A stretch of 64,000 bases of DNA from an uncultured delta proteobacterium (GTDB lineage: Bacteria > Desulfobacterota > Desulfobacteria > Desulfobacterales > UBA2156): assembly GCA_963736855.1 (NCBI GenBank), contig CAVTQK010000009.1:619769-683768 (forward strand), in the 5' to 3' direction. The notes under the pieces were generated by a model, which saw nothing but the letters and a program-made list of their open reading frames with translations, was not told the DNA's origin and did no database searches. A program made the position numbers and the translations under genes. Below, piece after piece: positions 46,947 through 63,997 of this stretch. How positions within the stretch are numbered: position 1 is the stretch's first letter; every line of letters starts with the position of its first letter.

Positions 46947-46957
46947 AGGATATGAAC

Positions 46958-47272: not shown

Positions 47273-47312
47273 CTTGCTGCTTTTTTCTGTCCTTTAAAAT
47301 TTCAGCTTAAAG

Positions 47313-48052: not shown

Positions 48053-48067
48053 GTCAGTATCCAAGCC

Positions 48068-48130
48068 ACCTACCGAGAAGCTAACCGACGCGCTGCTTTT
48101 TTGCGCGTCCGGTTGAGCGTTTTGTTATGC
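48068..48130 (-). other. attC site with mutated R' (GGT)
   Basis: minus strand GCATAAC-AAAAC-GCTCAACC...GGTTAGC-TTCTC-GGTAGGT. Confidence 0.75.
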
Positions 48131-48347
48131 GAGCCGTTTTATGTGCGAGGTCGATAAGTGAAAGTAGTGCGCTATTAACGGCCTGTTCGTTCGGGAAGGC
48201 TGCTGCAACTTCCGGTTTAAGAACTACAATGTTTGACGACTCACGAAGACGTTTAGCATACTTACCGCGCACCAAGCCACCGGGAAAATCTGACCGTTTA
48301 TACTCTCCACGTAATTCATCTTTTTTGTTTTCTTTATCCTTCTTCAT
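48081..48347 (-). CDS. BrnA-like antitoxin
   Basis: DELRGEY...RGKYA...VVLKPEVAAAFPNEQAVNSAL; downstream of BrnT. Confidence 0.75.
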   Translation of the reverse strand: MKKDKENKKDELRGEYKRSDFPGGLVRGKYAKRLRESSNIVVLKPEVAAAFPNEQAVNSALLSLIDLAHKTARITKRSTGRAKKQRVG

Positions 48348-48606
48348 ATATTTTTCGTTCTCCCTTGCTCGCAATGCGAGCACTTATGATTCTAATGGTT
48401 TCACTATGTTCTGTATGCGCCACCACCAACAATCTACCTCGTTCTGATACACCGAAGGTGACATACCGATCCTCGAAAACTGAATGGTCTGGATCGGCAC
48501 CAGTAACAGACATCGCATCGTTCAATGCTGTTGCAGCTTCTTCAAAAGAGACTTTGTGCTTACGCAGATTTGAGTTGGCCTTCTTTATATCCCATTCGAA
48601 TTTCAT
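48334..48606 (-). CDS. brnT: BrnT-family toxin
   Basis: MKFEWD..KA.SN.RKH.VSFEEA...HS..EDR...IRIISAR. Confidence 0.9.
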   Translation of the reverse strand: MKFEWDIKKANSNLRKHKVSFEEAATALNDAMSVTGADPDHSVFEDRYVTFGVSERGRLLVVAHTEHSETIRIISARIASKGERKIYEEG

Positions 48607-48642
48607 GTTACTTATTGTATCATTTCTTCATTTTAATTTCAC

Positions 48643-48729
48643 GCATAACGACGGAAATAACCTGCGCCGCCGCCGTTAATGGATTTAAAGCCGTACTTAC
48701 TCGGCGTCAGGTTGATTGATTTGTTGGGC
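48643..48729 (-). other. attC site
   Basis: plus strand GCATAAC...AATAACCTG...CAGGTTGATT GATTT GTTGGGC. Confidence 0.85.
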
Positions 48730-49047
48730 GATTTTTGTAATTTTATGCATGTCTTTTCTCTGCCCGTGAACATGCAGCTTGAATCCCAGCGCGTGAGTCA
48801 CCTTCAAAATCGTCGCAAAGCTCGGATTTCCCTCGCCGGAAAGTGCTTTGTACAGGCTCTCACGGCCCAACCCGGTGTCCTTGGCAAGTTGGCTCATACC
48901 ACGGGCGCGGGCGATGGTACCAAGCGCTTTGGCGATGAAGGCTGCATCGTCGCCAGCTTCTTCCATGCAGGCTTCAAGATACAGGACCATGTCCTCCTCG
49001 GTTTTGAGATATTCGGCGCTATCCCATTTGCGCAACTTCAATGTCAT
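48697..49047 (-). CDS. addiction module antidote (HTH)
   Basis: WDSAEYL, ALGTIARARGMSQLA, RESLYKALS..GNPSFATILKV. Confidence 0.88.
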   Translation of the reverse strand: MTLKLRKWDSAEYLKTEEDMVLYLEACMEEAGDDAAFIAKALGTIARARGMSQLAKDTGLGRESLYKALSGEGNPSFATILKVTHALGFKLHVHGQRKDMHKITKIAQQINQPDAE

Positions 49048-49056
49048 GTCGTCCTC

Positions 49057-49347
49057 CTACAATTTGCGCGCCAGTTGTAGCGCGGTCTTGATATCCTTGC
49101 TCTGTGTAGACTTGTTGCCCCCCGCCAGTAAGATCACCAGTTCTATGCCGCGCTGTACGAAATACACTCGATAGCCCGGCCCATAGTGAATTCGCATCTC
49201 CGATACACCCTCACCCACCGGCGAGCAATCACCGAAATTGCCATCTTCGGCCCGGTCGATGCGTGCTTGAATGCGCGCTACTGCCCGCTTGTCTTTCAGG
49301 CTGGCAAACCAAGCATCGAAGGTGTCCGTAGTCTGAATACTAATCAT
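49057..49347 (-). CDS. addiction module killer (RelE/HigB-like)
   Basis: GNFGD..PVGEGVSEMRIHYGPGYRVYF...LLAGGNKSTQ. Confidence 0.9.
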   Translation of the reverse strand: MISIQTTDTFDAWFASLKDKRAVARIQARIDRAEDGNFGDCSPVGEGVSEMRIHYGPGYRVYFVQRGIELVILLAGGNKSTQSKDIKTALQLARKL

Positions 49348-49414
49348 GATTTATATTTGTAGCATCTGGGATACAAAAAGGCAAGAACTATTTGATACGG
49401 CTCGGTACTGGCAA

Positions 49415-49498
49415 GCCCAATGCTTTGGATCACTTGCAAAAAATAGTGCAAAGCGAAGCGGCGCGCTATTTTTTGTCAAGTGCATCCAATTGTTCGGC
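49415..49498 (-). other. attC site with R' = ATT
   Basis: plus strand GCCCAAT..GGATCACTTG-AAAAAATAG..CTATTTTTT-CAAGTGCATCC AATT GTTCGGC. Confidence 0.8.
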
Positions 49499-49939
49499 TT
49501 CCTTGAGCTTTTCAATATCAATTTTATCTTGTGGTCTTCCGCTAGCTTCCTTTGCACGGATAAGATCAGACCGTGAAATGAAGGGAATTTTAAAATTTTC
49601 CAATTGTACTATTTCACGTTTTTTCCAAGCATCTTCGAATTCAATACCAGGTATCGACATCATTATATCAACCCTTATAGGAGGTCTTCCCATCTGATAA
49701 AAATATCCTTCGTGAGCGAAATCATCTGAAGTAAGATTTTCCAGTGGTGCACCAAATTCTTTTAAAGCAGCATATACAGCTTTTGCATTTTTTTGATCAG
49801 TCGCTATAAATAAATCGAGATCTTTCGTGAAACGAGGTTCACTGTATTTCATCACTGCGTACCCGCCCACAACAAGATATCGAATTTTATACTTTTTGAA
49901 AAGTTTCAATAGATCTTTGAAGTCTGGACTCGTCAGCAT
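49466..49939 (-). CDS. minimal nucleotidyltransferase-like protein
   Basis: YLVVGGYAV...PRFTKDLD...K..SGRPQD..D. Confidence 0.8.
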   Translation of the reverse strand: MLTSPDFKDLLKLFKKYKIRYLVVGGYAVMKYSEPRFTKDLDLFIATDQKNAKAVYAALKEFGAPLENLTSDDFAHEGYFYQMGRPPIRVDIMMSIPGIEFEDAWKKREIVQLENFKIPFISRSDLIRAKEASGRPQDKIDIEKLKEAEQLDALDKK

Positions 49940-50084
49940 TTTTCCCTCGAATTAAAAAATAATCATTTAACATTTCCGTTACCGCCTCAAAAATAGCAAG
50001 ATCTCCTTGGGATTGCCAGAAGCGAATATCAAATGAACGTCTGTCACCTTTTATACGTTGATATTTTTCTTCTATTTTTATCAT
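49887..50084 (-). CDS. small partner of the nucleotidyltransferase (probable TA pair)
   Basis: FDIRFWQSQG...RLQRS; overlaps the NTase start. Confidence 0.6.
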   Translation of the reverse strand: MIKIEEKYQRIKGDRRSFDIRFWQSQGDLAIFEAVTEMLNDYFLIRGKNADESRLQRSIETFQKV

Positions 50085-50107
50085 TTCTTATTCCTATGGT
50101 TTTATGT

Positions 50108-50157
50108 ATGCAACATTCCGCATCACCGACTGCGTCCGGTGAATGCGGTGGTTATCA
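50108..50157 (-). other. short attC site (50 bp)
   Basis: plus strand ATGCAAC..CCGCATCACCG...CGGTGAATGCGG..GTTATCA. Confidence 0.7.
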
Positions 50158-50329
50158 GCCAATGAACCGGCCCGAATCATTTTTCTTTGCCGGGGTTTCG
50201 TAGCCGATTCATATCTTCCCGCCGAATTGACATGGCCGGGTTTTTGACCGGCCCGGCGCAATTTCACATCGCGAATCAATACCATATCAACCGGATATTG
50301 TAACGGGTATAAACCTTGCGGTCTTTCCC

Positions 50330-52474
50330 TTACCCCTTGATCAACAGTTCTCTTTTAAAGGGCAGCTCTCTCAGCCTCACCCCCGTGGCCTTGAATAAAG
50401 CATTGGCCACAGCAGGGGCCACCGATGGGAAAACAGGCTCGCCGACGCCCCCGGGCTTAAGAGTGTTCTTGGCGATATGCACTTCTATTTCCGGCACTTC
50501 AGACATGGTAAGAACAGGGTAATCATCATAATTGGCCGTCTTCACACCGCCGTTTTCAAAACGGACCTTTTCATGAAACGCAACACTCAATCCCATGACG
50601 ACGCCGGCCTCGGACTGGGCCCGGATCGCATCCGGGTAAACGGCAGTGCCGCAGTCCAGGGCGCAGACCATCTTGTGAACGGTGATCTTCCCCTTTTCGT
50701 TTACCGACACCTCCGCCATGTGGGCCGCAAACGACTCAAAACAGGACGTTACGGCCACCCCTCTTGCCCTGCCTTCGGGGACAGGAGTCCCCCAAGCGGC
50801 TTTCTCCGCCAGAAGAGACAGAATGTTATAAGGTCTGCCGTCTTTTTCCATGTGATCAAGGCGGAATTGAACCGGATCCTTTCCGGCGGCATGGGCCAGT
50901 TCATCCATAAAGGATTCGACAGTGAAAGCATTGACGGAGTATCCCACCGACCGCCACCACCCCACGGTTACGGGCGAATTTATCATCACATAGTTCACAA
51001 GCAGGTTCGGGAGAGAATAAGGCATATCCGCGATGCCCGAAACCGCATCCTGATCAATGCCGTCCTTCACATATTGAGGCATCAGCCTGGACATCACGGA
51101 CGGCGCGGCAACTGTATGCGACCAGGCGATTACCCTGCCGTTCTTATCCAATCCAGCCCTTATTTTGCACTGACTTGCCGGACGGAAGCGGTCATTGGCA
51201 AAGTCATCCTCACGACTCCAGATCACTTTGACCGGACGGTTCAGTGTTTTGGAAAGCAAAACCGAATCCTCAACCGGATCCTGTTCCCCGCGCAGGCCGA
51301 AACCGCCGCCGGCCGGCAGGGTCATCACCTCAACCTTTTCAATGGGTAGGCCGGTTAATTTGGATGCCGTGAGTTGGGTAGCGGTCTGCCGCTGGGTCGG
51401 TATCCATACCCTGCAACGCTCTTTTTCCACATGGGCAGTGCAGTTGATCGGCTCGGCCTGGGCGTGAGAGATATAGGGTAACTTGTAGGATTGTTCTATT
51501 GTCTGAGCAGCTTCCGCCAATGCTTTTTTCACATCACCGCCGGTTTTAGCCACTGATGCCGGTTTCTCAAGATGTTCTTTAAATAACGCATCCAGGGTAT
51601 CATCATTCAGGTCCGGATGAGACCCTTTTGACCATCTGATATTGAGAGCATTCCGCCCTTTCATGGCCGCATAGGTCGTTTCCGCGCATACCGCAATCCT
51701 GTTTTTAAGGGGCGCTACTTTGATCACTCCCTTGACCGCCATGGCCGCCTTTTCATCATAGGATCGAAACGAAGCTCCGTAATGGGGCGGGCGGGCGACA
51801 AAGGCAACGCACATGCCGGGTATGGTGAAATCAATACCGAAAACGGTTTTTCCCATTACTTTGTCCGGAATATCCATCCGCTCCCTTTGGGTGCCGATAA
51901 TGCGGTAATCCTTTGGATCCTTCAGGGGCGGATACTCGGGGACCGGTCGTTTCCCGGCGGCTTCCGCTAACTGGCCAAAGGTGAGGCTGCGTCCGTCCGG
52001 ATGAATGACTTTGCCGTCTTTTGAGGCACATTTTTCGGCGGGAATCTTCCACTGCTCCGCCGCGGTTTCAACCAGCATCCGCCGGGCGGCGGCGCCAACC
52101 TTGCGGAGCAAATCCCAGCGATGGCGGATACTGCTGCTGCCGCCGGTCGCCTGCTCATGCCATACAGGGCTTTTAAACGGTTCCGCCGCGAGCGCCATTT
52201 TTACCCGCACTTTTTCCCATGCCGCATCCAGTTCATCCGCGATAATCATGGGAATACCGGTGTGGGTGCCCTGGCCGAGATTTGTCTGGCCCACCCAGAC
52301 CGTGATCGAGTCATCCGCGGCTATCTCCAGAAAAGCGTGGGGTTTGAAAGGGATATCCACGCCGGCCAGCACCGGTGAAACATTGAACAGGCCCACCCTG
52401 CCGGGCAGGGCCGCCGCCGCGATCACAAGGCTGCTTTTCTTCAGGAAATCTCTTCGTGTCATTTGTGTATTCAT
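50330..52474 (-). CDS. molybdopterin oxidoreductase large subunit (IorB-like), Tat signal
   Basis: TRRDFLK, GQG..T, TGGSSS, GGGFG, WWRSVG, GGVGEP. Confidence 0.9.
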   Translation of the reverse strand: MNTQMTRRDFLKKSSLVIAAAALPGRVGLFNVSPVLAGVDIPFKPHAFLEIAADDSITVWVGQTNLGQGTHTGIPMIIADELDAAWEKVRVKMALAAEPFKSPVWHEQATGGSSSIRHRWDLLRKVGAAARRMLVETAAEQWKIPAEKCASKDGKVIHPDGRSLTFGQLAEAAGKRPVPEYPPLKDPKDYRIIGTQRERMDIPDKVMGKTVFGIDFTIPGMCVAFVARPPHYGASFRSYDEKAAMAVKGVIKVAPLKNRIAVCAETTYAAMKGRNALNIRWSKGSHPDLNDDTLDALFKEHLEKPASVAKTGGDVKKALAEAAQTIEQSYKLPYISHAQAEPINCTAHVEKERCRVWIPTQRQTATQLTASKLTGLPIEKVEVMTLPAGGGFGLRGEQDPVEDSVLLSKTLNRPVKVIWSREDDFANDRFRPASQCKIRAGLDKNGRVIAWSHTVAAPSVMSRLMPQYVKDGIDQDAVSGIADMPYSLPNLLVNYVMINSPVTVGWWRSVGYSVNAFTVESFMDELAHAAGKDPVQFRLDHMEKDGRPYNILSLLAEKAAWGTPVPEGRARGVAVTSCFESFAAHMAEVSVNEKGKITVHKMVCALDCGTAVYPDAIRAQSEAGVVMGLSVAFHEKVRFENGGVKTANYDDYPVLTMSEVPEIEVHIAKNTLKPGGVGEPVFPSVAPAVANALFKATGVRLRELPFKRELLIKG

Positions 52475-52477
52475 GGT

Positions 52478-52939
52478 TTACCCTCCCTGCCTCGCGGTCA
52501 TTTCCGCAGCCATTTGAATCGCCTTTTTGATCCGGGGATGCGTGCCGCAACGGCAAATCACATTATCCATAGCATCGTTGATCTGTTCCTCGGTCGGATT
52601 CGGATTCCGTGAGAGAAAATCAACTGTCTGGAGCATGATTCCGGGTTGGCAGTATCCGCACTGGGGAACCTGTTTTTCGATCCAGGCAACCTTTACCGGA
52701 TGATTTTCGGGCAGGCCCTCAATGGTCGTGATCTTGTTTCCAAGCACGTCTTTTACATAAACAACACAGGATCGCTGGGCTTCGCCGTCAATGAGAACCG
52801 TGCACATGCCGCATTCGGCAATGCCGCAGGTGTATTTTACACTCGTAATCCCCAGGTTGTCTCGCAGAACCCACAACAGAGGGGTGTCCGGGTCCTCATC
52901 GACCTGCCTATTTATCCCGTTCACGTTTAATACAATCAT
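52478..52939 (-). CDS. [2Fe-2S] small subunit (IorA-like)
   Basis: PLLWVLRD, CGIAECGMCTV, QCGYCQPG, CRCGT. Confidence 0.92.
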   Translation of the reverse strand: MIVLNVNGINRQVDEDPDTPLLWVLRDNLGITSVKYTCGIAECGMCTVLIDGEAQRSCVVYVKDVLGNKITTIEGLPENHPVKVAWIEKQVPQCGYCQPGIMLQTVDFLSRNPNPTEEQINDAMDNVICRCGTHPRIKKAIQMAAEMTARQGG

Positions 52940-53064
52940 GTTTCCTCCTTGATGTGGTGATTATTTCCTTTTTTAACAAATCCGACTTGTTACCTTATGC
53001 CGGAAGCAGATATTTCATTTGTTTTGCTGAATATCCACTAATTGTAACTGTAATATTTATCAGT

Positions 53065-53202
53065 GGATAATGGCGAGCTGAGCGGCCGGCCGGTGAGCCG
53101 AGTTGCGCCGCAGGCGCGATGAAGGCGAAATCCGGCGGCGGGCCGAGGCGCTCGTGGCAATCGCAGGACGTAGCCGCCGTCCGGTTGAGCGCCTCGTTAG
53201 CG
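53065..53202 (-). other. long attC site with R' = ATT
   Basis: minus strand CGCTAAC-GAGGC-GCTCAACC...GCTCAGC-TCGCC-ATTATCC. Confidence 0.7.
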
Positions 53203-54108
53203 TTCATCATTCCACCCCTGCTTCTTAGCTTTAGATAGGCATTCTTTCGCCCGCCTATATCCCAATTCAATCATCTCGGATGCCCGGTCAAACTCTAATG
53301 TATGACACGCGTTCCTGGCAATTTCTATGACTATGTCCGGCGGGTAAGCGGCAAGCTTTTGGCGCGCGATGGTACTCTGCATAGTCTCAAACGCCTGAAT
53401 GGCGATATCGTACGCCCCCCAATCTCCACTGCCCCTGCTTGTCACGGATTGTTGGAGTTGATTTATGAAGCGATTGATCCTTTCACGTAACGGAGATGAA
53501 GGGGACGCTGGAGCAGCACTCAAGGTGCTCCGCTCTTCCGGATTCTGTGCGGGGCCCCCCAGATTTACGGCAATAGTAATGTCGGTTTCATCACCAAACG
53601 TTGGCGCAATAGGCACAGGATTTAAAACCCCTCCATCAACAAGATCTCCCCCTTTGTACTTGAAGGGAGTAAAGAGAAGCGGTATTGCGAAAGACGCTCT
53701 CATAGCATCAAAGAGACTACCCGACTTTATCCATATTTCCTTCTGGCCTTTTATATCGGTCGCAACAGCCGTATATGCAAAGGGGAGATCTTCGATTAAT
53801 TGCTCTCCTACTAGCTTGATAAGGGTGTTGATGATTTTGTCGCCTCTTACTAGTCCGCTCTTTTCCCATGAAAGATCCAGTAGAGTGACTATGTCAACTT
53901 TCGTGATGGAACGCACCCATTGCTCATATACATCTAGTTTTCCGGCAGCATATATTCCCCCTATGACTGCACCGATTGAGCAACCGACTATTGATCGTAT
54001 TTCATAATTGTTTTCTTCAAGCCAATGAATTACGCCAATATGTGCTAAACCTCGAGCGCCGCCACTCCCAAGAACTAGAGATACAGTTTTCATATTCGTT
54101 ATTGCCAT
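53197..54108 (-). CDS. patatin-like phospholipase
   Basis: GSGGARGLAHIG, GCSIG, DGG. Confidence 0.92.
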   Translation of the reverse strand: MAITNMKTVSLVLGSGGARGLAHIGVIHWLEENNYEIRSIVGCSIGAVIGGIYAAGKLDVYEQWVRSITKVDIVTLLDLSWEKSGLVRGDKIINTLIKLVGEQLIEDLPFAYTAVATDIKGQKEIWIKSGSLFDAMRASFAIPLLFTPFKYKGGDLVDGGVLNPVPIAPTFGDETDITIAVNLGGPAQNPEERSTLSAAPASPSSPLRERINRFINQLQQSVTSRGSGDWGAYDIAIQAFETMQSTIARQKLAAYPPDIVIEIARNACHTLEFDRASEMIELGYRRAKECLSKAKKQGWNDER

Positions 54109-54134
54109 AATCTCAGCGAATGCCTTTCCTGAGA

Positions 54135-54221
54135 CGCTAACGCCAAGCTAAGCAGGCGGCGCCCGGTGTTTCCTATGAAAAGCCGAAAGTAATTCCGCTC
54201 TGCTTAAGCGACATGTTGGGC
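54135..54221 (-). other. attC site
   Basis: minus strand GCCCAAC-ATGTC-GCTTAAGC...GCTTAGC-TTGGC-GTTAGCG. Confidence 0.9.
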
Positions 54222-54529
54222 CGATGAACTGTCTACTTGCATAGCTTCCACATGCAATTTTAAGCCGAGTGCACTTATAACCTTTAGGATTGTGTCGAAA
54301 TTTGGAGTTCGTTCCCCAGAGAGTGCTTTGTAAAGACTTTCCGGGAAAGGCCGGCATCACGAGCCACTTGTGACATGCCTTTAGCGCGCGCGATATCGCC
54401 CAAAGCTTTTGCAATAAATGCAGCATCACCATGTGCCTCTTCAAGGCAAGCTTCAAGGTAAGCTGCCATTTCTTCCGGGGTGCGAAGATGTTCAGCGACA
54501 TCATATCGTGTGGTGATAGTTTTTGTCAT
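54204..54529 (-). pseudogene. addiction module antidote, frameshifted
   Basis: paralog of 48697-49047; frame breaks after GLSR near 54340. Confidence 0.8.
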
Positions 54530-54538
54530 AATAGACTC

Positions 54539-54830
54539 CTATAAATTCTGCGCAAGTCGAAGGGCTATTTTGATATCTTTGGCTTGGGTATGTTTATCGC
54601 CGCCAGCCAACAATATTATCACCTTTTGCCTTTGTTTTTTTGTAATAAACCCGGTATCCGGGACCATAATCGATCCGCAGTTCTGAAACGCCTTCACCCA
54701 CATCCTTAACATCCCCGGGATTTCCGGAAGCAAGCCTTTCGATTCGAGCAAGAATGCGGGCGCGTGCACGAATGTCATGCAACCCATCAATCCATTTGGA
54801 AAATATTTCAGTCTTGCGAATTTCGATCAT
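54539..54830 (-). pseudogene. addiction module killer, frameshifted
   Basis: GVSELRIDYGPGYRVYY and LLAGGDK lie in different frames across a T-run near 54635. Confidence 0.8.
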
Positions 54831-54836
54831 GGCTAT

Positions 54837-54865
54837 AATGTATCCAGTGGGCTACATAATGTCAA
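54837..54865 (-). promoter_or_regulatory. TA promoter with operator
   Basis: TTGACA-17 nt-TACATT-6 nt-ATG; ATGTAGCC..GGATACAT inverted repeat. Confidence 0.75.
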
Positions 54866-54891
54866 TACCTATTGTGCAGCATGAGGGTGGA

Positions 54892-54964
54892 GGCCAACGT
54901 ATGCCTCACCGGTGGTCGGAAGCCAAAGGCTGACCGGCCATCCTTGTGCAGGCGATGGTTAGAT
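54892..54964 (-). other. attC site
   Basis: plus strand GGCCAAC GTAT GCCTCAC...GTGCAGGC GATG GTTAGAT. Confidence 0.8.
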
Positions 54965-55219
54965 TTCGCCTTTATAGACTTCTTTGCGATCACCGACTCT
55001 GAGGATGAGTATGTCAGCGCCAAGGATGGCATATATCACCCTATAGTCACCTATGCGGTACTTGCGAAGTCCGGCAAACTGCCCCTTGAGTACTGGGTTC
55101 GCCTCTGGCTTTTTGATCAGTTCGGTCTCTATCAAATCGAGGATTCGCTTTGCCTCTGGCTTGGACAACTTCTTGAGGTCTCGATGTACTGATTTCTTAT
55201 AGACGATGTTATAGGCCAA
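54959..55219 (-). CDS. RelE/ParE-family toxin
   Basis: LKGQFAGLRKYRIGDYRVIY...VGDRKEVY. Confidence 0.9.
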   Translation of the reverse strand: MAYNIVYKKSVHRDLKKLSKPEAKRILDLIETELIKKPEANPVLKGQFAGLRKYRIGDYRVIYAILGADILILRVGDRKEVYKGEI

Positions 55220-55427
55220 GAGACTTCCTCATCTCCTTGGCGGAAATGAGTTCATCGCCCTTATCATGAAGTCGATCAAGAGCGATCTGAAGGTCGGCGA
55301 AGTCTTCGACGTACAACTCCAACGCTTTCTGGATGATGAAGGATCGTGGTCTCTCTGTCTCTTTGGCTATGCTGTCAAGTTGTGTTGCGAGATCTTTCGG
55401 AAGCCGTACCGATATGGCTGTACTCAT
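55209..55427 (-). CDS. RHH antitoxin
   Basis: ISVRLP..L...LD.IA....RPRS.II..AL. Confidence 0.85.
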   Translation of the reverse strand: MSTAISVRLPKDLATQLDSIAKETERPRSFIIQKALELYVEDFADLQIALDRLHDKGDELISAKEMRKSLGL

Positions 55428-55455
55428 GTGACACCTCCTGTCATTGCTGTATCAC

Positions 55456-55484
55456 AATGTATGCAAGAGCGCATCGTTTGTCAA
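55456..55484 (-). promoter_or_regulatory. TA promoter
   Basis: TTGACA-17 nt-TACATT, GGAGG RBS downstream. Confidence 0.7.
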
Positions 55485-55498
55485 GTCTCTGTTTCGAA

Positions 55499-55522
55499 AT
55501 CTAACATTTAGTTGAGCGGCGA
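55499..55522 (-). other. half attC abutting the IS91-like remnant
   Basis: plus strand ATCTAAC ATTTA GTTGAGC. Confidence 0.5.
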
Positions 55523-56085
55523 CTGAGCCGCTGACGCGGCAGGTTTTTTTGCGATTCGTTGCGAGCAGTATGGAGGCATGGTAGACCCCTCGGTGTCCGC
55601 CCGGACACAACCCAAACCCTTAAGGAGGTCTACCATGAGCATTCTACGCGAACGCATGATTCAGGACATGCAGCTTCGAGGCTTTTCGCCCCGGACCCAA
55701 CAATCCTACGCGCGAGCAGTCCGTAAGCTGGCTCAACACTATCACAAATCCCCGGATCTCGTCACGGATGAGGAACTGCGCTAATATTTCCACTACCTCA
55801 TCCCAGGGGGCGGATTGGCCGGCCGAACGTGGCGACCGGCCAGAGCCGGCCACCTGCTGCCTGAAAAACCTCTGGCTCGGATCTTTCGGGCCAAGTTCCG
55901 GGACCTGCTCCAAAAGGGGCGCCTGATTGAGCAAATCCCCAGCAAAATCTGGCGCCAAGATTGGGTCGTGGACATCATCCCGGTCGGAAACGGCCATGCG
56001 GCTTTTAAGTACCTATCCCCCTATATCTTCCGCACGGCCATCAGCAACCGCAACATCCTCGCTCTGAAAAACGGCCAAGTCACAT
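55523..56085 (+). mobile_element. deleted remnant of a tyrosine recombinase + IS91-like transposase element
   Basis: left hairpin GAGCCGCTGACGCGGCAG; MSILRERMIQDMQLRG..RTQQSY (integrase N-terminus) joined to HYLIPGGG...KYLSPYIFR. Confidence 0.8.
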
Positions 56086-56303
56086 TGGCCTGAGCTGATA
56101 TCGTTTAACCCAATTATCTCACCTCCAGAATATGCTTTTAGTCTGTTAGGAATATGATTATTTAAGAAATTTCGAAAAATCGCTTCTCTGTTTGAACCAA
56201 TATCACCTCGATGATTACCGCTTCTAACCAAATTACTCTCAATGGATAATTTTTTTGAAAGATTATTGAAATATGTTTTGATTCTATTCATCACAATATT
56301 CAT
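56078..56303 (-). pseudogene. N-terminal fragment of a DUF6602-like protein
   Basis: H.GDIGSNRE...FL..HIP...SGQCD, cut by the IS91-like remnant. Confidence 0.55.
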
Positions 56304-56312
56304 TCAGCTTAG

Positions 56313-56371
56313 GCATAACGCTCTGCGTCATCCGCGAGCGAAGCGAGTCGGACTGAATGCGACTGTTCGCT
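56313..56371 (-). other. attC site
   Basis: plus strand GCATAAC..GCGTCATCCG...CGGACTGAATGC GACT GTTCGCT. Confidence 0.75.
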
Positions 56372-56652
56372 CATCTCTTTTTCAGATATTTCTTTAAATC
56401 TCTGTAATAATTTTGATGAGGGCCAATCATTATCAGCTCAAGTTGTTCTTCGTTGAAACGGTAAGCTAAAAGGTACTGAATGGTTTTAATTTTAAATTTA
56501 TGCACATATACTTCCCTCAGGTCACCTTTTTTTTCATCACCGATATCTGGATTTTCGAGTATTAACTTGATCTGCTCATCAAGAGCCATTTTCTGAGCTT
56601 GATTAAACTGTTTCACCCGTTGTTCGAAAGATCGAGATTGAATAATTTTCAT
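56371..56652 (-). CDS. RelE/ParE-family toxin
   Basis: NPDIG..KKGDL..VYVHKFK...LLAY...GPHQNYYRDLK. Confidence 0.88.
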   Translation of the reverse strand: MKIIQSRSFEQRVKQFNQAQKMALDEQIKLILENPDIGDEKKGDLREVYVHKFKIKTIQYLLAYRFNEEQLELIMIGPHQNYYRDLKKYLKKR

Positions 56653-56655
56653 CCG

Positions 56656-56877
56656 TCATTTTCCAAATTTGTATTCGGAGTATTCACCCTGCTCTAATTC
56701 GGTAAGACCAATGAATATTTCCTTGATTAAGCTGAATGTAAGGTCGGGGTTTTCCTCGGCGCATTTCCCAATCATGGCCCAATATTCGATTTGACCTGTC
56801 ACTGACCTTTTATCGATTTTACTATAAATTTTAGCCTGTTTGACCAAATCCTCAGACACCCTGACTGCTGTGGTCAT
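56656..56877 (-). CDS. ParD-like antitoxin
   Basis: AVRVSEDL...RSVTGQIEYWA.IGK.AEENPDL. Confidence 0.85.
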   Translation of the reverse strand: MTTAVRVSEDLVKQAKIYSKIDKRSVTGQIEYWAMIGKCAEENPDLTFSLIKEIFIGLTELEQGEYSEYKFGK

Positions 56878-56956
56878 ATTTGCACCTCCAATTATTTGTT
56901 GTAAATGTACAACATATAGTCGCAAAATGCAACACAAAATTGGCATTGGCTTCAGA

Positions 56957-57027
56957 AACGAACGTGGAAGCTCAGCCGACGGCAAAAAGCGTAGCCTTTT
57001 AACGGTCGGCTGAGCGGATTGTTGGGC
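56957..57027 (-). other. attC site
   Basis: plus strand AACGAAC..GCTCAGCCGAC...GTCGGCTGAGC GGATT GTTGGGC. Confidence 0.8.
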
Positions 57028-57043
57028 ATCAGCGCCCAAAGGT

Positions 57044-57436
57044 TCATTCACGCGCGAAAGCCCGTGGCAGGCAGGCGCCCTCGCTGATACGGAACGACTT
57101 CAGCGGAACCGGATTGCTCGGCTTAGCCTTCAGATTGAGCGCCATAAGCGCCGCCAGCAGTTCCGGGCTCTGATAGGACCAATCCTGAAACCAGCCGTGG
57201 TTGGCCAAGCGGTACTGGAATCGGTCGTCGTGCCGCTGCACGTCCACGTAAGCGCCCGGGTCGTTAGGGGTTCCCGGGAAATACTGGTCGTAGAACGAAA
57301 GCTCGTGCGCGTGCGGCAACCAAAGCAGCAGGCGCAGGAAATCCGCCTCACCAATATCCAGCCCAACGGCAACTTCCGCATCGTTACCTTGGAGTTTGGT
57401 GATCGTGAGACCGGAGATAGCTGGCAACTCGATCAT
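57044..57436 (-). CDS. hypothetical protein
   Basis: 130 aa GC-rich ORF with a GAGGG RBS, inside a cassette. Confidence 0.6.
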   Translation of the reverse strand: MIELPAISGLTITKLQGNDAEVAVGLDIGEADFLRLLLWLPHAHELSFYDQYFPGTPNDPGAYVDVQRHDDRFQYRLANHGWFQDWSYQSPELLAALMALNLKAKPSNPVPLKSFRISEGACLPRAFARE

Positions 57437-57441
57437 ATGGC

Positions 57442-57780
57442 TCAGCCCTCGCGACTGTCGAAGGGCTCGAAGTTCCGATCGGCGAACGCCGCAGTGAGTA
57501 TTCCCGAACTGCAAAGCCACTCGACCGCGGCCGCAAGGCCGAGTCCTGCGACATGAATATTCTCGCTATTGCGCGGCAAGACGTAGATACGCTCACGCTC
57601 GCCCGGATGGACGATAATCTCGTCGCCGTCGAAGGTGTCTCCGATGATCACGGATTCAAGCGCCTGCGCCTTCGTCAGGACATCTCGGCCCGGATCCCAG
57701 AACCAGTATTCGTCAATTCGCTTGCGCCATTCTGCGAGATTGTTATCGCCGCTTAGTATGCGCCGCGGCGGATAGACTAT
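57442..57780 (-). pseudogene. C-terminal part of a possible SMI1/KNR4-like protein
   Basis: VYPP.RI...YWFW...IIGDTFDGDEI...IYVLPR; no start codon inside the cassette. Confidence 0.45.
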
Positions 57781-57795
57781 GCCCCTTCCTTTGAC

Positions 57796-57860
57796 GCCCA
57801 ACGCCCGGTTACACAGGGCGCGGCGATTTATCAGCGCTCCTGTGCAAACCGATGTTAAAG
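57796..57860 (-). other. attC site
   Basis: plus strand GCCCAAC..CGGTTACACAGG...CCTGTGCAAACCG AT GTTAAAG. Confidence 0.8.
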
Positions 57861-58193
57861 ACCGATTTCCTTCTTTATTGCGTCCACACACAATTTATTG
57901 AGGCTTTGTCCTTTTTTAATGGCGGTGATTGCAATCTGCTCATGCAGATCTCTTCCTAATCTTAAATTGAATTTTCCGGAATATCCTTTTTTAGCTGTAG
58001 ATGGCGGAAGCTTTTCTCCATCCTGCTCATAAATATCTATCCATTCCTCAATAACATGGCAAAGCTCTTCATAAACTTTAATTTCATCTTTTCCATGAAC
58101 ACCCCCTAACATCAAACCGGGGGCACGCCCGATATAACAGTGATCTTTCTCAGACCACTCAACAATTTTTAAATAACGATCACTTTTTTTCAT
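57855..58193 (-). CDS. hicB: HicB-family antitoxin
   Basis: VEWSEKD.CYIG..P...YSGKFNLR...LH. Confidence 0.88.
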   Translation of the reverse strand: MKKSDRYLKIVEWSEKDHCYIGRAPGLMLGGVHGKDEIKVYEELCHVIEEWIDIYEQDGEKLPPSTAKKGYSGKFNLRLGRDLHEQIAITAIKKGQSLNKLCVDAIKKEIGL

Positions 58194-58383
58194 CTTTAAT
58201 CCTTTCCAATGCCTTTTTAACATCAGCCTCTTGATAAGGCTTTGCGTCATTGCCTGGTTTGCCGCTGATCGTGATATTAACGCCTTTGGGATGCTTATAA
58301 TTTCTATGACTTCCCTTTCCACCACGATCTATGAAACCAGCAGATTCTAATTTTTTTATTAATTCTTTAATTTTAGGAGGCAT
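58180..58383 (-). CDS. hicA: HicA-family toxin
   Basis: L..AGF..RGGKGSHR..KHP. Confidence 0.9.
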   Translation of the reverse strand: MPPKIKELIKKLESAGFIDRGGKGSHRNYKHPKGVNITISGKPGNDAKPYQEADVKKALERIKDEKK

Positions 58384-58389
58384 AATTGA

Positions 58390-58418
58390 ATGGTATCACA
58401 ATGGTACTGGATTATCAA
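58390..58418 (-). promoter_or_regulatory. hicAB promoter
   Basis: TTGATA-17 nt-TACCAT-6 nt-ATG. Confidence 0.65.
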
Positions 58419-58452
58419 TGATATTTTTTAATGCAAGCATGTATCTTTTGGT

Positions 58453-58583
58453 CTTTAACGTCGAATTAAGTTGCGGGCAGGGTGTACGGAAGTGAAAGCA
58501 CCGAAAGACTATCAGAAACCATGAACGTATTTATAGAAAAACCCGTCCGACCCTGCCCGTCAATCTTGAATGTAATGTTAGCC
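58453..58583 (-). other. long attC site
   Basis: plus strand CTTTAAC..ATTAAGTTGCGGGCAGGGT...ACCCTGCCCGTCAATCTTGAAT..GTTAGCC. Confidence 0.85.
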
Positions 58584-58597
58584 CGCTTTGCAAGCCC

Positions 58598-59503
58598 TCA
58601 AATATTTTTCGCGTTTTCTGTTGCAATCAACACATTCCGATGAAATATCTCATACGGAATACCTGTATTAAGTTTGCCAAACACTTCTCTGTAACCTTCT
58701 TCCGTTTGCTCAATAAGATTAGGCAAGTAGAAAAGCTTTCCCCAAGTCTCCATTTTTTCTTGAAAAGACCTGCCCAGCTTTGTTGCTAAGGGACGATCGA
58801 GATGTTTCTTGTTCCACGGGCAGGCGTGTTGACAGATCTCACAATCACCCACTCTGTTCCCCATTACTAATCGTGCTTTCTCCAGTAAATCTTCAGATTG
58901 CAATAGGTAGGAAAGACACTTGCTCACATTCAATACATACGGTTGATCAAGTGCGAGCAACGGGCAAGCTGACTGGCAATTGTCGCATTTGCCACAGTGG
59001 TTAGGTTCTTCTTCTTTATTATGCTCAAGATCGGCATCGGTTACAATCCCGCCAAGGGCAAGAAAAGTCCCATATTTTTTGGAGATCAGCAATGAATGCT
59101 TCCCCTGCCATCCTAAGCCCGCCCTTATTGCCGCCAGCTTTAACGGGAGGATGGAGCCCTTACTCGTTTTGCTCTCACATACAATTGCTTGGTATCCTTC
59201 CTTTTTCAAGAAAGCAACGATGGGTTGTAATGGTTTCACTACATCAAGAAAAAATCCTGAGAGGTAGAGCCGGCTTGTTCGTCCATACCGGGTATCTGAC
59301 CACGCTGGGAGCGTTAATCCTCCAATGTAGATACCCGCAACAATAATTGTTTTTGCATCTGCCAAAGACAGTTTGGGATTTCGTCGTTTAGAGTGATTTA
59401 GGGCATACCCTTTGAACTTAGACGCCTCAGTGAAGCCCAAAACATCAATTCCTGTAGAATCTGCCAAAAGCTTGATTTCTTTGGATAGGAAGGTTTCTGC
59501 CAT
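58598..59503 (-). CDS. QueG-like (epoxyqueuosine reductase family) Fe-S protein
   Basis: AGLGWQGK.SL.IS..YG, CGKCDNCQSACP, DCEICQHACPWN. Confidence 0.82.
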   Translation of the reverse strand: MAETFLSKEIKLLADSTGIDVLGFTEASKFKGYALNHSKRRNPKLSLADAKTIIVAGIYIGGLTLPAWSDTRYGRTSRLYLSGFFLDVVKPLQPIVAFLKKEGYQAIVCESKTSKGSILPLKLAAIRAGLGWQGKHSLLISKKYGTFLALGGIVTDADLEHNKEEEPNHCGKCDNCQSACPLLALDQPYVLNVSKCLSYLLQSEDLLEKARLVMGNRVGDCEICQHACPWNKKHLDRPLATKLGRSFQEKMETWGKLFYLPNLIEQTEEGYREVFGKLNTGIPYEIFHRNVLIATENAKNI

Positions 59504-59542
59504 CTTTTTATAACTCACCTTCTTCTGAACTCTCACACGGGT

Positions 59543-59595
59543 TAACAACGCGACGCATCAGCGGCGCGGCTTGTCCGCGTCCGCTGCATGCGATT
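59543..59595 (-). other. attC split by the IS110-family element (R'' displaced to 61484-61490)
   Basis: plus strand TAACAAC..GCATCAGCGG...CCGCTGCATGCGATT [IS] GTTAGGC. Confidence 0.85.
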
Positions 59596-59788
59596 GATAC
59601 TAGTTATGGCCTTCCTAAAAAAGGGAGGCGGCGAATGATAGACCGCAGTACGTTTTCTGTGCTCCGACGAGCTTATTAAGGGCCCATTCTCGCACAGAAA
59701 ACGCCCTGCGGGTTGCCCCCTTTCGCTTATGACGGTAAACTGATGTCACCCCTGACATTCACCTACCCAAGAAAAAGGAGGCCAAACA

Positions 59789-60858
59789 ATGAAATTCTAC
59801 ACTCAGCAACATCGGCATTACTGCGGAATCGACCTGCACGCCAGAAAAATGTACGTCTGTATCATCGACCAAAAAGGCAAAGTCCGGGTTCATGAAAATA
59901 TCCAAACCGATTCTGAACAGTTCTTCGAGCTGATTTTTCCGTTTATAGAAGATGTCGTTGTCGGCGTCGAATGCGTTTTCTGCCCCGCCTTTCAGGCGGG
60001 ATCTTCGACTGGCAACGGGTTGCCGATCTCTGCGCCGCACATAAAATTCCGTTTGTTCTCGGCCATGCATTATACATGAAAGCCATCCACGGCGGCAAAA
60101 CAAAAAACGACAAGATCGATTCCTATAAAATCGCCCTGCTACTCAAAGGGGGAAATTTCCCCACGGCTTACTCCTATCCGTCCGAATGGCGGGCCACACG
60201 CGATCTGTTGAGAAGACGCATGTACATCGCCCGGCGCTGCGGAGAACTGGTGGCCCATATCCAGAACACCAACACTCAATACAATCTGCCGGCCTTCAAG
60301 AAAAAGCTTACACGCAAATACAATCATGAAGGTGTGCCGGAACGCTTCGAAGATCCGGAAGTCCGAAAAAGCGTTGAAGTCGATCTGGCCATGATCGATT
60401 CACTCAATCAGATCCTGAGACAGCTGGAATGGCATATCGAAAAAACCGCCCGACAGCAGGATTACCACATGCTGTATCTGCTGCGCTCCACCCCGGGGGT
60501 CGGTCAAATCCTGGCCCTGGTAATTCTGTATGAAGTCCACGATATCCGACGCTTCCCAAGAGTTCAGGACTTTTCGTCATATGCCAGGCTCATCCGACCC
60601 GTCAAAGAATCCGACGGCAAATGGGCCGGTTACTCCAATAAGAAAATCGGCAACCACCACCTAAAATGGGCCATCAAAGAGGCGGCCATCCTGTTCCTGA
60701 GGGAATCCGAACAGGCCAAAAAATACGTGGCCAAGCTCGAACGAAAATACAACAAGGGAAAAGCCCTGGGGATCTTTACACACAAATTGGGACGGGCCAT
60801 CTATTTCATGCTCAAAAACAAGGAGGCATTTAACATGAAGCACTTCTTTGCCGAATGA
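59789..60858 (+). pseudogene. IS110-family recombinase, frameshifted by a 26-nt insertion
   Basis: GIDLH, VE, KNDKID, PGVG, F.SYARL...ES.GK, GN..LKW in two frames. Confidence 0.9.
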
Positions 60859-61460
60859 TCTTGGGGCTGGGAGATGTCAGCTTGTGGCCTAACTGAGATC
60901 TCATGGGTGGATCCGAACCTCTGTACTTATTGCTTGCAGCACGACTGCTCAAAAGAGTGGACCAAATACCCGAAGCTCATCGCGCTTGATTGGCGGTATC
61001 CCCCGGTCCCAACCCAATATACCGATACCTTGAAATGAGAAGGATCGCGTTCTGCCCCTTATTCGAGTGACGCCCTAACTGGATGCTCCGCCCACAGCGG
61101 ACAAGCCGATTCGCTTTGAGTGCGCCGGATCAAGGGTACCGAAATATATTCTGAAGCTGCCGGATGGCAGCACGCTGATTGTCAAAGAACACCTTGACGT
61201 ATCAGTCAATCCCGATAGATGTTTGGTGCAGACGCGTTATAAAAACGCCCTGACGCCCAAAGATGACCGGAAAAGCGAGCTTATAAGCGAGCGAATCACA
61301 AATGGCCATTTCCTTACCGGGAACAGTTCCGTGAACTTTTTCATGGAACTGTTCAACCGAAAGCCAGAATCAGCGGATCGCTCATTAAGGAATCTGATTC
61401 AAAGATGGAAGATTTATTCTCTATTCTTTTTCCTTCCGATCTTTTAAGGAATTATTTTAT
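60859..61460 (+). ncRNA. candidate bridge/seek RNA region
   Basis: long ORF-poor region between the transposase and right IR, with GCCTAACT (60887) and CCCTAACT (61073); boundaries unknown. Confidence 0.55.
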
Positions 61461-61565
61461 TGACATCCGAAGGCCATATAGAAGTTAGGCAATTAATCAC
61501 TCGATCCCCGAAGCATGAATAGTACAAGTTCGGGAGCAAATAGACCCCTTAAATGTGTTTTAAAA

Positions 61566-62108
61566 TTAGAGACCAGCTGGGATTTTTGAGTGCATCATTT
61601 TCTTTCGGTCCAACTTACGCCCATCCACTATAAAAGTTCCATCGCCAACTGCATGAACAGTTCGCTTCTCCTTTCGTGAATTATCAAAGTACGCAGCAAC
61701 GCCTTCGAGGACGACGATATTGTGCTTCTTGACGATATCGACAACTTTGCACTCGATATTCGCCATACATTCTTTTATCAAGGGCGCTTTGACATGCTTT
61801 CCCTTCACGGGGGTCAACATGAACTTTTCAAATTTGTCTGTATCAGCGCCTGAACATGTTCCCACTCCAACGACCTTATCAAGCATGTCAACTGTGGGAA
61901 GTGCAATAACACACTCCTTCGTTTTACGAAGAGCATCAAAGGAATAGTTCCAGGGCCCAGTGGTCATGGCAAATATCGGCGTAAAGTCCACCACCATGGT
62001 CCACGAGATCGTCATTATATTGTTCTTCTTTCCGTCATGTGTCGTAACAAGAACAACTGGACCAGATTCGATCAACGTAAACGCTTTACTGATCTGCATT
62101 TTTCTCAT
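61566..62108 (-). CDS. flavin reductase-like FMN-binding protein
   Basis: GPVVLVTT...NIMTISW, VGTCSG...DKF, APLIKEC.ANIEC. Confidence 0.88.
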   Translation of the reverse strand: MRKMQISKAFTLIESGPVVLVTTHDGKKNNIMTISWTMVVDFTPIFAMTTGPWNYSFDALRKTKECVIALPTVDMLDKVVGVGTCSGADTDKFEKFMLTPVKGKHVKAPLIKECMANIECKVVDIVKKHNIVVLEGVAAYFDNSRKEKRTVHAVGDGTFIVDGRKLDRKKMMHSKIPAGL

Positions 62109-62134
62109 GTGCACACACGCTCCTATTTTTGTTT

Positions 62135-62218
62135 GCCTAATGGGCGCCGGTTCACCTGCGGAACCGGGGACAAATTTATTTGGACACGGGGACGTCAGGT
62201 GTAACCGCGTTGTTCTGC
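62135..62218 (-). other. attC site with R' = ATT
   Basis: minus strand GCAGAAC-AACGC-GGTTACAC...GTGAACC-GGCGCCC-ATTAGGC. Confidence 0.75.
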
Positions 62219-62285
62219 CGCGCTTGCGCGGCGGGACAACCGGTTGGCAAACCGGCGCCCATTCTCGCCGACGCGCAAGCGGCGG

Positions 62286-62348
62286 CGAGAACGTAGCCAT
62301 CATCCGGAGCGCGCTGTTTGCGCGATCGGGTGCATGGCATGGTTCAAG
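62286..62348 (-). other. attC site
   Basis: plus strand CGAGAAC GTAGC CATCATCC...GGGTGCATG GCATG GTTCAAG. Confidence 0.75.
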
Positions 62349-63991
62349 TAAGCCGCTGTGCGGCAGAAAAACCTTCCAGTCATTTTTTCAATTAAGCCCA
62401 TCCGCGGTAAGTTGCAAAAGCTTATAGTCTTCTGGCATACCTCTCATATCGGATCCCCATCCAATAAACCCTTCAAAGAAAGGAGAGAGGTTATGATGAA
62501 AGACTATTACCAAAATTCCATGAGAGCCCTGCAACTTGCCGGAATGAGCCAGCGTACCCAAGCATGCTATACACGATCGGTTCGCATGCTCGCTGATTTT
62601 TACTCAATACGCACCAGAATATGTCCGCCGCTTCGGCGATGCCATGCCAAATGAACACAGAAAAGTGATTAATGCCATCATTGACTGCCGTGCTCAAAGC
62701 TGCTGCATGGCCATTTACCAGTGTGAAAAATGTCACAGCTCCCATTCCGTGTTCCGATCCTGCGGCAACCGGCATTGCCCCTTCTGCCAGAATCATAAAA
62801 CCAAAATGTGGCTTGCCTGGCAGACCAAACGACAACTCCCGGGACACCATTTTATGATCACCTTTACCGTCCCCGAACAATTACGTCGCTTTATCCGCAG
62901 CAACCAGCGGCTCTGCTATGCGGCATTGTTCAAAGCCTCCGCCGACACTCTTAAAAAACTTTCTTGTGATCCAAAATACATCGGCGGCGATCTTCCCGGT
63001 TTCTTCGGCGTGCTGCATACCTGGGGCCGACAGCTGCAGTATCATCCGCATATCCACTACATCGTCGCCGGCGGCGCTTTGTCCAGAAAAGAAAATAAAT
63101 GGCATCGCGCTCGCATCGATTTTTATCTGCCGGTCCGGGCCATGTCCAAAATGTTTTCCGCTAAATTCCGCGATGAAATGAAAAAAGCAGCACTTTTAAG
63201 CGCTATTCCCGCCGACGTATGGTCAATCGATTGGAATGTGAACTGTTAACCCGTGGGCAGCAGCAGGCACAGCGTCCGATATCTGGCCCCCTATGTGTTT
63301 AAGGTCGCCATCTCCAATCGCCGTATCGTTAAGGTACAAGATCGCAACGTCTTCATTCGTTATAAGAAAAAAGATAGCCGGCGCTGGCGCGCCATCTCCC
63401 CCTTGATATCATGGAATTTCTAAGACGCTTCTTACAGCACGTTCTGCCAACCGGCTTTATGAAGGTCCGTTACTATGGCTTTTTGCACCCTTGTTCCTCT
63501 GTTCCGTTGAATAAGATCCGCACGCTAATACAAATAGCTTATGGGTTTGAAATTGCCTGCCGCAAAGCATCCTTTGCGCCGCATACACCGCCAATCTGCC
63601 CGCATTGCGGCGGCAAAATGAAATACCTCTATTCGGTGCTGCCGCTTATGATGGCCCCGGCAGGGCACGGATAAACAGGTTTGAGGGTCGCTTATCTTTC
63701 ATCAATTCGCTGCCTGATAATCCGGCGGCACAGGATAGCTGCACCTGCGGCTGTCAAAACGATGCGCTGTACGGTTCTGCTTGTCAAAGAACGGTCGATT
63801 CTTAGCTGATTCTGAAAGACAAACGGTTCGATTTCAGTGACCGGCTCCGATTTTAGCCAGCAGCGCCATACCCCGGCTAAACCCTCCCTGATACCTCTCC
63901 AAGCATTACCCCTAATAAATAGTGCGCCCTGTCCGGACTTCTTGAACAATGGATTGAAAACGACCTTCCAGGTCGTGTCAATCCTTATAGG
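62343..63991 (+). mobile_element. tyrosine recombinase (N-terminal remnant) + IS91-like Y2 transposase element, degenerate
   Basis: LQLAGMSQRTQACY; CGNRHCPFCQ, HTWG...HPHIH, RYLAPY, EFLRRFLQHVLP.GF.KVRYYG; internal deletion, stop at 63247, later frameshift. Confidence 0.88.
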
Positions 63992-63997
63992 TTAGAC
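63941..63997 (+). other. attC-like hairpin at the element's right end
   Basis: CTTGAAC-AAT-GGATTGA-AA-ACGACC..GGTCGT-G-TCAATCC-TTATAG-GTTAGAC. Confidence 0.65.

Follow-up and report, generated by a model that had tools for sequence, protein, structure and literature searches.

What kind of element comes to lie inside the recombination site of an integron gene cassette when it carries a transposase and a tyrosine recombinase of its own, and which of the two enzymes put it there? The question is posed by one end of a 64,000-nucleotide (nt) stretch of DNA from an uncultured delta proteobacterium, called the window throughout, which is the final 64 kb of contig C9 in a genome of 3.9 Mb in 25 contigs. 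A minus-strand integron cassette array spans approximately 45.9 to 62.3 kb of the window, and beyond it lie a tyrosine-recombinase remnant and an IS91-type transposase pseudogene, which a sequence-only reading of the locus had taken for an element built like an inverted, self-contained cassette. We report that window positions 62343-63991 hold a degraded 1.65-kb copy of a 2.4-2.6-kb two-gene element. It is probably a dead insertion sequence (IS) of the IS91 family, in which the gene for a Y2 HUH transposase follows that for an IntI/Xer-like tyrosine recombinase, and whose clade homes to integron attC sites.

A degraded two-gene element splits a resident attC site

The element (E1, plus strand) lies at the G↓TT of the R'' box of a minus-strand attC (the arrow marks the junction), with its genes directed opposite to the array. 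Its left junction reads ...CATGG↓TTCAAGTAAG, and the motif GGTTCAAGTAAG occupies positions 62341-62352 (one match against a chance expectation of 0.23). The left, terIS-like end (62342-62364, plus strand) consists of the 7-mer GTTCAAG, the bases TAA and a GC-rich hairpin, GCCGC-TGT-GCGGC (62352-62364), and is conserved in the 47 complete elements described below. The right, oriIS-like end (63933-63991, plus strand) contains a subterminal inverted repeat ending in CTTGAAC (63941-63947), then AAT, an imperfect hairpin (63951-63984) with outer stem GGATTGA/TCAATCC and inner stem ACGACCT/AGGTCGT, the spacer TTATAG and a terminal G, which opens the junction G↓TTAGAC (63991-63997). GTTCAAG on the left is the exact reverse complement of CTTGAAC on the right. 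Since GGTT is common to both junctions, the boundaries are ambiguous within it and the exact cut point over 3-4 nt. Junctions, reverse-complementary ends and opposed gene direction are as the sequence-only reading had described them.

Read on the plus strand, the attC-like sites of the array carry their bulged bases on the 3' arm, so that the plus strand of the window corresponds to the attC bottom strand. On that plus strand, what lies of the resident site to the left of the element (62286-62342; top strand on the minus strand) reads as CGAGAAC (62286-62292), the complement of R', followed by an imperfect hairpin and, after a spacer of 3 nt, the G belonging to the split R'' box. The remainder of R'' in this minus-strand site, TTAGAC on the plus strand, occupies 63992-63997, and window and contig end at 64000. 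Joined to the 7 nt past the element, the left flank forms a 63-nt attC-like site with a 17-pair stem, spacers of 3 and 3 nt and -15.8 kcal/mol, which passes the arm plus AAC criterion given below and was also picked up by a scan of the whole window. The proposal that removing the element restores a resident site is borne out in this form, the right half of the site being GTTAGAC only because the contig ends 9 nt past the element.

The recombinase remnant (62493-62606, plus strand) retains the first 37-38 codons only, matches Phage_int_SAM_4 at an E value of 4.9e-05, below cut-off, and aligns with residues 1-37 of the intact recombinase of a relative, L050. Comparison with a longer copy on contig C24 of the same genome places an internal deletion junction at 62596-62607 (plus strand), where segments 94-304 and 309-1694 of the window-copy query match the C24 copy 791 bp apart. 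The deletion of approximately 791 bp takes the remainder of the recombinase gene and the first transposase codons. The Y2 (IS91-family) transposase pseudogene (62596-63674, plus strand, delimited by open reading frames (ORFs) and Pfam domains) consequently has no native start; it ends at its natural stop (63672-63674) and is interrupted by a TAA stop at 63247-63249 and a frameshift at approximately 63390-63400, residues 7-274 and 271-365 falling in different frames. Its three pieces match Zn_Tnp_IS91 (PF14319, 6.9e-21) and Y2_Tnp (PF04986, 7.4e-22, 8.8e-11 and 2.5e-09), and in Pfam the genes of the element match Phage_int and IS91 domains only. The window copy is dead, as had been claimed from its deletion, stop and frameshift.

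Relatives share the end architecture and the terminal hairpin

Two further copies in the same genome bear on the limits of the element: the one at the end of contig C24, which is 88-89% identical to the window element and frameshifted, and a right-end fragment on contig C19. Their right-end hairpins are nearly identical to that of the window and stand beside other flanks, GTTCAAT and GTTAGGG, so the terminal hairpin is the element's own.

The transposase is present in 49 of the 401 genomes scanned in the phylum, and a recombinase gene lies upstream of Y2 in 20/20 loci fetched from that scan. A search with the intact transposase of L050 against one genome per species recovered 79 loci of the window's clade, labelled Desulfobacterota, Proteobacteria, Rokubacteria, Anaerolineales, Planctomycetota, Spirochaetes and others. 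These, together with L050, L055 and the window copy, make 82 sequences, of which both ends were delimited by a fixed rule in 47; the remaining 35 were dropped, mostly because contig ends cut them or they failed the end rule. The 47 complete elements have in common a left end GTTCAAG.AAGCCGC-hairpin and a right end GGGCTT-CTTGAAC-hairpin-spacer-G↓TT, and their left and right 7-mers pair at 7/7 positions in 39 and at 6/7 in 8.

All 46 complete relatives besides the window copy carry the terminal hairpin, beside different flanks. Over 29 distinct right ends (of 32, the long-loop L090, L107 and L126 being left out), 93.4% of cells are paired and 5/12 pairs are changed on both sides, a pairing level reached by 0/500 shuffles. 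RNAalifold recovered only the outer stem of the right ends because of alignment gaps, and the inner stem was counted with a supplied structure. The earlier suggestion that the hairpin belongs to the element and is conserved agrees with these counts and with the C24 and C19 copies.

Some ends depart from the common plan. L083, L085 and L086 carry the whole right-end module in tandem, the second unit starting G↓TTGAAC, and a tandem repeat of the last 7-8 nt lies just outside the right end of L107 and of L165; both patterns could have been left by repeated rounds of cleavage and joining there. L135, one of three copies in one genome, starts ATTCAAG instead of GTTCAAG. Unless this start arose by later mutation, the target supplies the first base, and cleavage between G and TT would be favoured. 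Finally, an element of the window's clade (L051, genome G403), its right end missing or disrupted, has landed within the coding region of another IS91-type transposase gene.

The two ends pair and co-vary across clades

Comparison across clades indicates that the left-end 7-mer pairs with the 7-mer 5' of the terminal hairpin and that the two co-vary. Four types are fully complementary (7/7), namely GTTCAAG/CTTGAAC, GTTGGAC/GTCCAAC, GTTGAAC/GTTCAAC and CATGAAC/GTTCATG, and among them positions 1, 2, 4, 5 and 7 vary on both sides. Near-complementary types are GAAGA(A)C/GTTCTTC, GGGGAAC/GTTCCCC and xACGAAC/GTTCGTx. The pairing runs into the flank (AAGCC/GGCTT), giving a 12-13-nt inverted repeat whose right copy sits within the terminal hairpin module.

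In an automated test, the left end of a locus found a complement of at least 11/12 downstream of its own transposase in 24/32 loci, as against 72/790 pairings with left ends of foreign type. The right end was mis-registered or absent in the other eight (L051, L060, L067, L153, L155, L159, L160 and L168): either the right end is disrupted or cut by a contig end, or the register is wrong. End-pair types 4-8 were read by eye because the automated test mis-registers 8/32 loci. The predicted co-variation of the first bases with those before the terminal AAC was thus recovered in several clade types.

Most insertion sites of the clade are attC sites entered in one polarity

To be scored as attC-like, a site needed an arm duplex no weaker than -9 kcal/mol with 9 or more pairs, and an AAC no farther than 12 nt 5' of that arm. 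By this arm plus AAC criterion, 28/44 sites of the window's clade are attC-like, compared with 180/1941 control GTT sites from the same loci (odds ratio 17), a comparison whose significance is overstated since the sites are not independent and include related copies from the same genome and two pairs sharing a flank. More bulged bases fall on the 3' arm in 24/28 passing sites and in 51/180 control positives. With the element removed in silico, the empty site of L050 forms an attC of 72 nt whose R box matches at 7/7 positions, and many other flanks of the clade show an attC layout by eye. For the window and L050, the small flanking ORFs lie on the strand opposite to the element. In the window's clade most insertion sites are therefore attC sites, entered in one polarity. 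Empty sites in the form of an attC split at G↓TT, which the sequence-only reading had anticipated, hold for most of this clade, on the R'' side.

Two other scoring schemes, an R-box test demanding 6-7/7 complement (passed by 3/45 sites) and a constrained-fold stem walker (5/45), were replaced as too strict. Full R-box complementarity is not expected because neighbouring cassettes supply one box.

Targets begin GTTA in 37/47 cases and GTTC in 3/47, and none begins CTTG; three of the 47 'targets' are the second, tandem copy of a right-end module. The GTTC/CTTG target rule of IS91 does not describe them, the part in common being AAC↓. The target core equals the first 3 nt of the element, also in the GAA-core clade (GAAGAAC/GTTCTTC), where two of three right junctions (L060 and L152) continue with GAA, not GTT.

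Kinship with IS91 and with integron integrases

Judged by its transposase, the element is an IS91 family member that departs from the target rule of the family: the intact transposase of a relative matches the IS91 family profile NF033538 with 378 bits (cut-off 125). As references for the ends we took canonical IS91 and an IS1294-like element, both from E. coli plasmids; in each, a right end of CCTATA type lies downstream of the gene, and a GC hairpin stands only a few bases away from the left end. Aligned with the left ends of these references, the left end has 10 invariant columns over the hairpin, and its right end shares a CC(T)TATA-type motif. The element's two ends appear to be homologues of the ori and ter ends of IS91/IS1294. 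Neither of the two canonical IS91-type elements compared has a recombinase or a long terminal hairpin.

In the 47 complete elements, the junctions have GTT alone in common with the target. Positions 4-7 of the left end read CAAG, with GAAC taking its place in other clades; we take these to be the IS91 tetranucleotides. Read on the minus strand, every insertion has the form target-xAAC↓ element ...CTTGAAC↓ flank, so that the insertions appear to follow the IS91 scheme with a relaxed tetranucleotide. As the left end has an IS91-type tetranucleotide, the junctions are accounted for just as well by plain rolling-circle insertion by Y2 at xAAC↓; IS91-type chemistry does as well here as a recombinase inserting a cassette.

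The intact recombinase of a relative has integron integrase (TIGR02249) as its best family, with 176.8 bits in two stretches and under the cut-off of 265. With the IntI of this genome the element recombinase shares 30% identity, with a gap of approximately 31 residues at the IntI-specific segment. By cut-off and specific segment it falls outside IntI and would be IntI-like at best. The genome itself encodes four IntI genes above the TIGR02249 cut-off. At E <= 1e-40, TIGR02249 has no match in G275 (a complete genome with two copies of the element), G240 (seven matches to the element) or G030 (the genome of L050), and G231, with seven copies, yields only a 147-bit fragment. Multi-copy genomes in which IntI is not detected make host IntI unlikely as the driver.

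Proposed mechanism and alternative explanations

In the reading we favour, homing of an IS91-family element to attC, Y2 would nick the right, ori-like end on the element's minus strand, after the xAAC supplied by the target. Rolling-circle replication by Y2 would displace the nicked strand, and termination would follow at the left, ter-like end, past the ...CTTGAAC that belongs to the element itself. The 7-mer pairing and the hairpin would join both ends in an attC-like fold. The single strand would then go in after the AAC of a similar site, the folded attC top strand (R''-spacer-hairpin), used as a mimic of the element's ori with its box-AAC↓, 5-7-nt spacer and hairpin. The recombinase may act on the folded junction or on resolution. 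That Y2 itself performs both cleavage and joining is, on the comparison of ends and targets, an evenly balanced proposition.

Several observations weigh against this reading, beginning with the non-independence of the scored sites. Sixteen of the 44 fail the attC criterion, some (L126 and L075, for instance) only through its strictness, but others look non-attC. The four sites of G231, which belong to a sister clade, are not clearly attC, and insertion in attC is not obvious in sister clades with the same architecture. The fourth target base, A in 37/47, is not the C that an extended 7-mer pairing favours, so pairing explains at most 3 nt of target choice, and L151 of the GAA-core clade sits at GTA. 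The likeness of the right end to IS91/IS1294-like right ends is modest, with only 3 invariant columns; the right flank in the window is only 9 nt long; and a Y2-only account gives the conserved recombinase gene no function.

The last point is taken up by a possible, if doubtful, alternative in which Y2 only makes a circular copy of single-stranded DNA (ssDNA) and the recombinase joins its folded attC-like end junction to the G↓TT of the folded attC top strand, making the element a self-mobilising inverted 'cassette'. The affinity of the recombinase to TIGR02249 (176.8 bits) speaks for such a role, as do its retention in all 20 sampled relatives, a junction fold with attC layout and co-varying 7-bp R-box-like pairing, and, in line with integron recombination, a GTT triplet as the only sequence common with the targets; the two canonical IS91-type elements lack both recombinase and long terminal hairpin. 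Yet the recombinase scores under the IntI cut-off and is without approximately 31 residues at the IntI-specific segment, the ends look like IS91 ori and ter ends and carry the IS91 tetranucleotide, and the GAA-core clade is easier to reconcile with programmable pairing than with a rule fixed on GTT. Use of attC is not clear in clades that have the same recombinase, and E2, a Y2-only IS91-like element of this genome, stands at an attI-side G↓GTT, though a recombinase may have been lost after its insertion. Combining both enzymes, we tentatively entertain that the elements are self-mobilising cassette mimics, in which an HUH enzyme makes the ssDNA copy, a programmable 7-nt end pairing shapes it into an attC-like fold, and an IntI-related recombinase, one without the inserted segment of IntI, recombines this fold with the normally unused attC top strand. 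If true, this would add a third class of integron parasite, new in its enzymes, and perhaps an evolutionary link between IS91-type elements and the integron attC/IntI system.

Insertion by host IntI of an oversized cassette, through attC x attC recombination, is very unlikely. The end junction is attC-like, four IntI genes are present and the C24 copy lies approximately 1.5 kb from one of them, but insertion on the R'' side and opposite to the cassettes, seen in 24/28 scored sites, is not a normal IntI product, the bulge pattern of the element fold is non-canonical, and multi-copy or intact elements occur without detectable IntI in G275, G240 and G030 and beside a mere fragment in G231. It is extremely improbable that ordinary IS91 targeting of GTTC or CTTG fell in attC by chance and that the cassette likeness is coincidental. 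Both tetramers do occur in the element ends and GTTC follows the C24 copy; the excess of GTTA over GTTC among targets, the attC-like sites (28/44 against 180/1941 controls) in one polarity and the co-varying 7-mers stand against it. Arbitrary insertion of this kind, which the sequence-only reading had named as the finding that would undo it, thus does not fit the targets. The chance that the terminal hairpin is part of a neighbouring cassette's attC is practically nil: only its place beside an R''-type box suggests it, and the recurrence of the hairpin with different flanks in the C24 and C19 copies and in 46 other complete elements rules it out.

Relation to known mobile elements

Homing of an IS91-family element to attC, still the reading we prefer, places it between several known systems. 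With IS91 and IS1294 the element shares a Y2 HUH transposase that has an N-terminal zinc-binding domain, and CAAG/GAAC at the left end. It appears to resemble them also in having its ori-like end downstream of the gene, its ter-like end with a GC hairpin upstream, and no target duplication past the shared triplet. Unlike IS91, it targets attC R'' boxes in one polarity (GTTA in most cases, not GTTC/CTTG), and it has a long terminal hairpin, a co-varying end pairing of 7 nt (12-13 nt with the flank) and a conserved IntI/Xer-like recombinase gene. An upstream tyrosine-recombinase gene is also found in the IS91-family ISfinder members ISWz1 and ISShvi3. Passages of two reports place ISWz1-type relatives at the flanks of resistance regions in Flavobacteriia (PMC9751785, PMC11322121).

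Like an integron cassette, the linear element starts with TT and a further 4 nt complementary to the box that precedes its own terminal hairpin, ends in the G before the target TT and is inserted at the G↓TT of an attC box; paired boxes, imperfect hairpin and G↓TT junction together amount to an attC of its own. Unlike a cassette, it carries two enzymes of its own, is inserted inverted and at the R'' side instead of at R' in array orientation, and has ends that look homologous to those of IS91. Its fold has spacers of 3 and 6 nt and bulges AAA against G, which is not the canonical attC bulge pattern, and its presence in genomes without detectable IntI is indirect evidence against dependence on IntI. 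Of the traits of a cassette, then, the element's own paired boxes, hairpin and G↓TT junction are present, whereas the canonical extrahelical bases and strand marks and R' insertion in array orientation are not, and neither, on indirect evidence, is IntI dependence.

IS200/IS605 elements such as IS608 transpose as single strands with guide sequences. IS608 resembles the present element in its HUH enzyme, its subterminal hairpins and a short sequence at the hairpin foot able to pair with the cleavage site, and an IS608-like programmable pairing is consistent with the co-variation seen here. The element differs in having a Y2 IS91-type transposase, not a Y1 TnpA, which places it outside IS200/IS605, in its recombinase, and in a 7-bp Watson-Crick pairing between the ends that targets follow in 3 nt only.

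To our knowledge only two types of attC-targeting elements are known, the IS1111-attC group of the IS110 family and the group IIC-attC introns. Both insert in attC in a site- and orientation-specific manner, as the element does, and the introns, like it, lie opposite to the cassettes. They work with a DEDD transposase and with a reverse transcriptase/ribozyme, respectively, in place of Y2 HUH plus tyrosine recombinase, and the absence of a DEDD (IS110-type) transposase among its genes places the element outside the IS1111-attC group, the IS110-type gene at 59971-60858 of the window being unrelated to it. Both types are mentioned as attC-targeting in parts of a published account (PMC9229058). 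Within the available portions of the full-text literature searched, which left subscription journals and ISfinder/TnPedia outside, no description of attC homing by IS91-type elements was found, only a passing remark that gives no target rule. A widespread IS91-type element homing to attC with its own IntI-like recombinase would be a third attC-targeting kind. It can split or reshape cassette arrays and seed new attC-like sites, and its co-varying end pairing offers a testable handle on cleavage and target choice in the IS91 family and on the role of the recombinase in this subgroup.

Surrounding array and related elements in the genome

The array stretch is packed with small ORFs on the minus strand, the strand of the cassette ORFs, with box-hairpin-box sites recurring between them. 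A crude window-wide scan placed attC-like sites at 45983-62348 and one more at approximately 40929, and none within positions 1-40000. GC skew over the array on the plus strand is weakly negative (-0.077), a noisy signal given little weight; it fits an attC top strand on the lagging-strand template, and we do not lean on it. The cassette starting at the R' box of the resident attC encodes a flavin-reductase-like protein (61566-62108, minus strand; PF01613, E 7e-27). Among 11 genomes of the family, no empty-site allele of the window's cassette was found.

Elsewhere in the array, overlapping small ORFs at 57855-58383 (minus strand) look HicB/HicA-like in their translations, judged by eye, and form a cassette. 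An IS110-family transposase gene (59789-60858, plus strand; PF01548 and PF02371), apparently split into two overlapping ORFs, adjoins the attC-like site at 59540-59609 of the same array and may be an insertion of the IS1111-attC type. Two pairs of repeats, 47317-47389 with 62139-62211 (73 nt, 97% identity) and 45417-45536 with 61309-61428 (120 nt, 90% identity), suggest duplicated cassette segments.

On contig C24, the copy of the element follows the ...ATTGAAC of E2 and was possibly inserted inside E2's own right-end box. E2 (L018, 6103-7443) has an intact 411-aa transposase and begins with GGTTCAAGTAAG, approximately 150 bp from the IntI start, where attI is expected. The C24 copy lacks its left end, and a search for that end turned up only a solo left-end remnant elsewhere (L171, contig C9, 431089-431103), where the exact 15-nt left-end motif is accompanied by a decayed hairpin but no element follows. 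E3 (L019, contig C17, approximately 4130-6480, minus strand), a diverged two-gene element in which both genes are defective, starts with GTTGGAC, has GTCCAAC before its terminal hairpin and neighbours a type I restriction-modification methylase-like ORF. The right-end fragment on C19 (L020, approximately 4720-5250) is a chimeric remnant, its left side fused to the 3' end of a different transposase-like frame.

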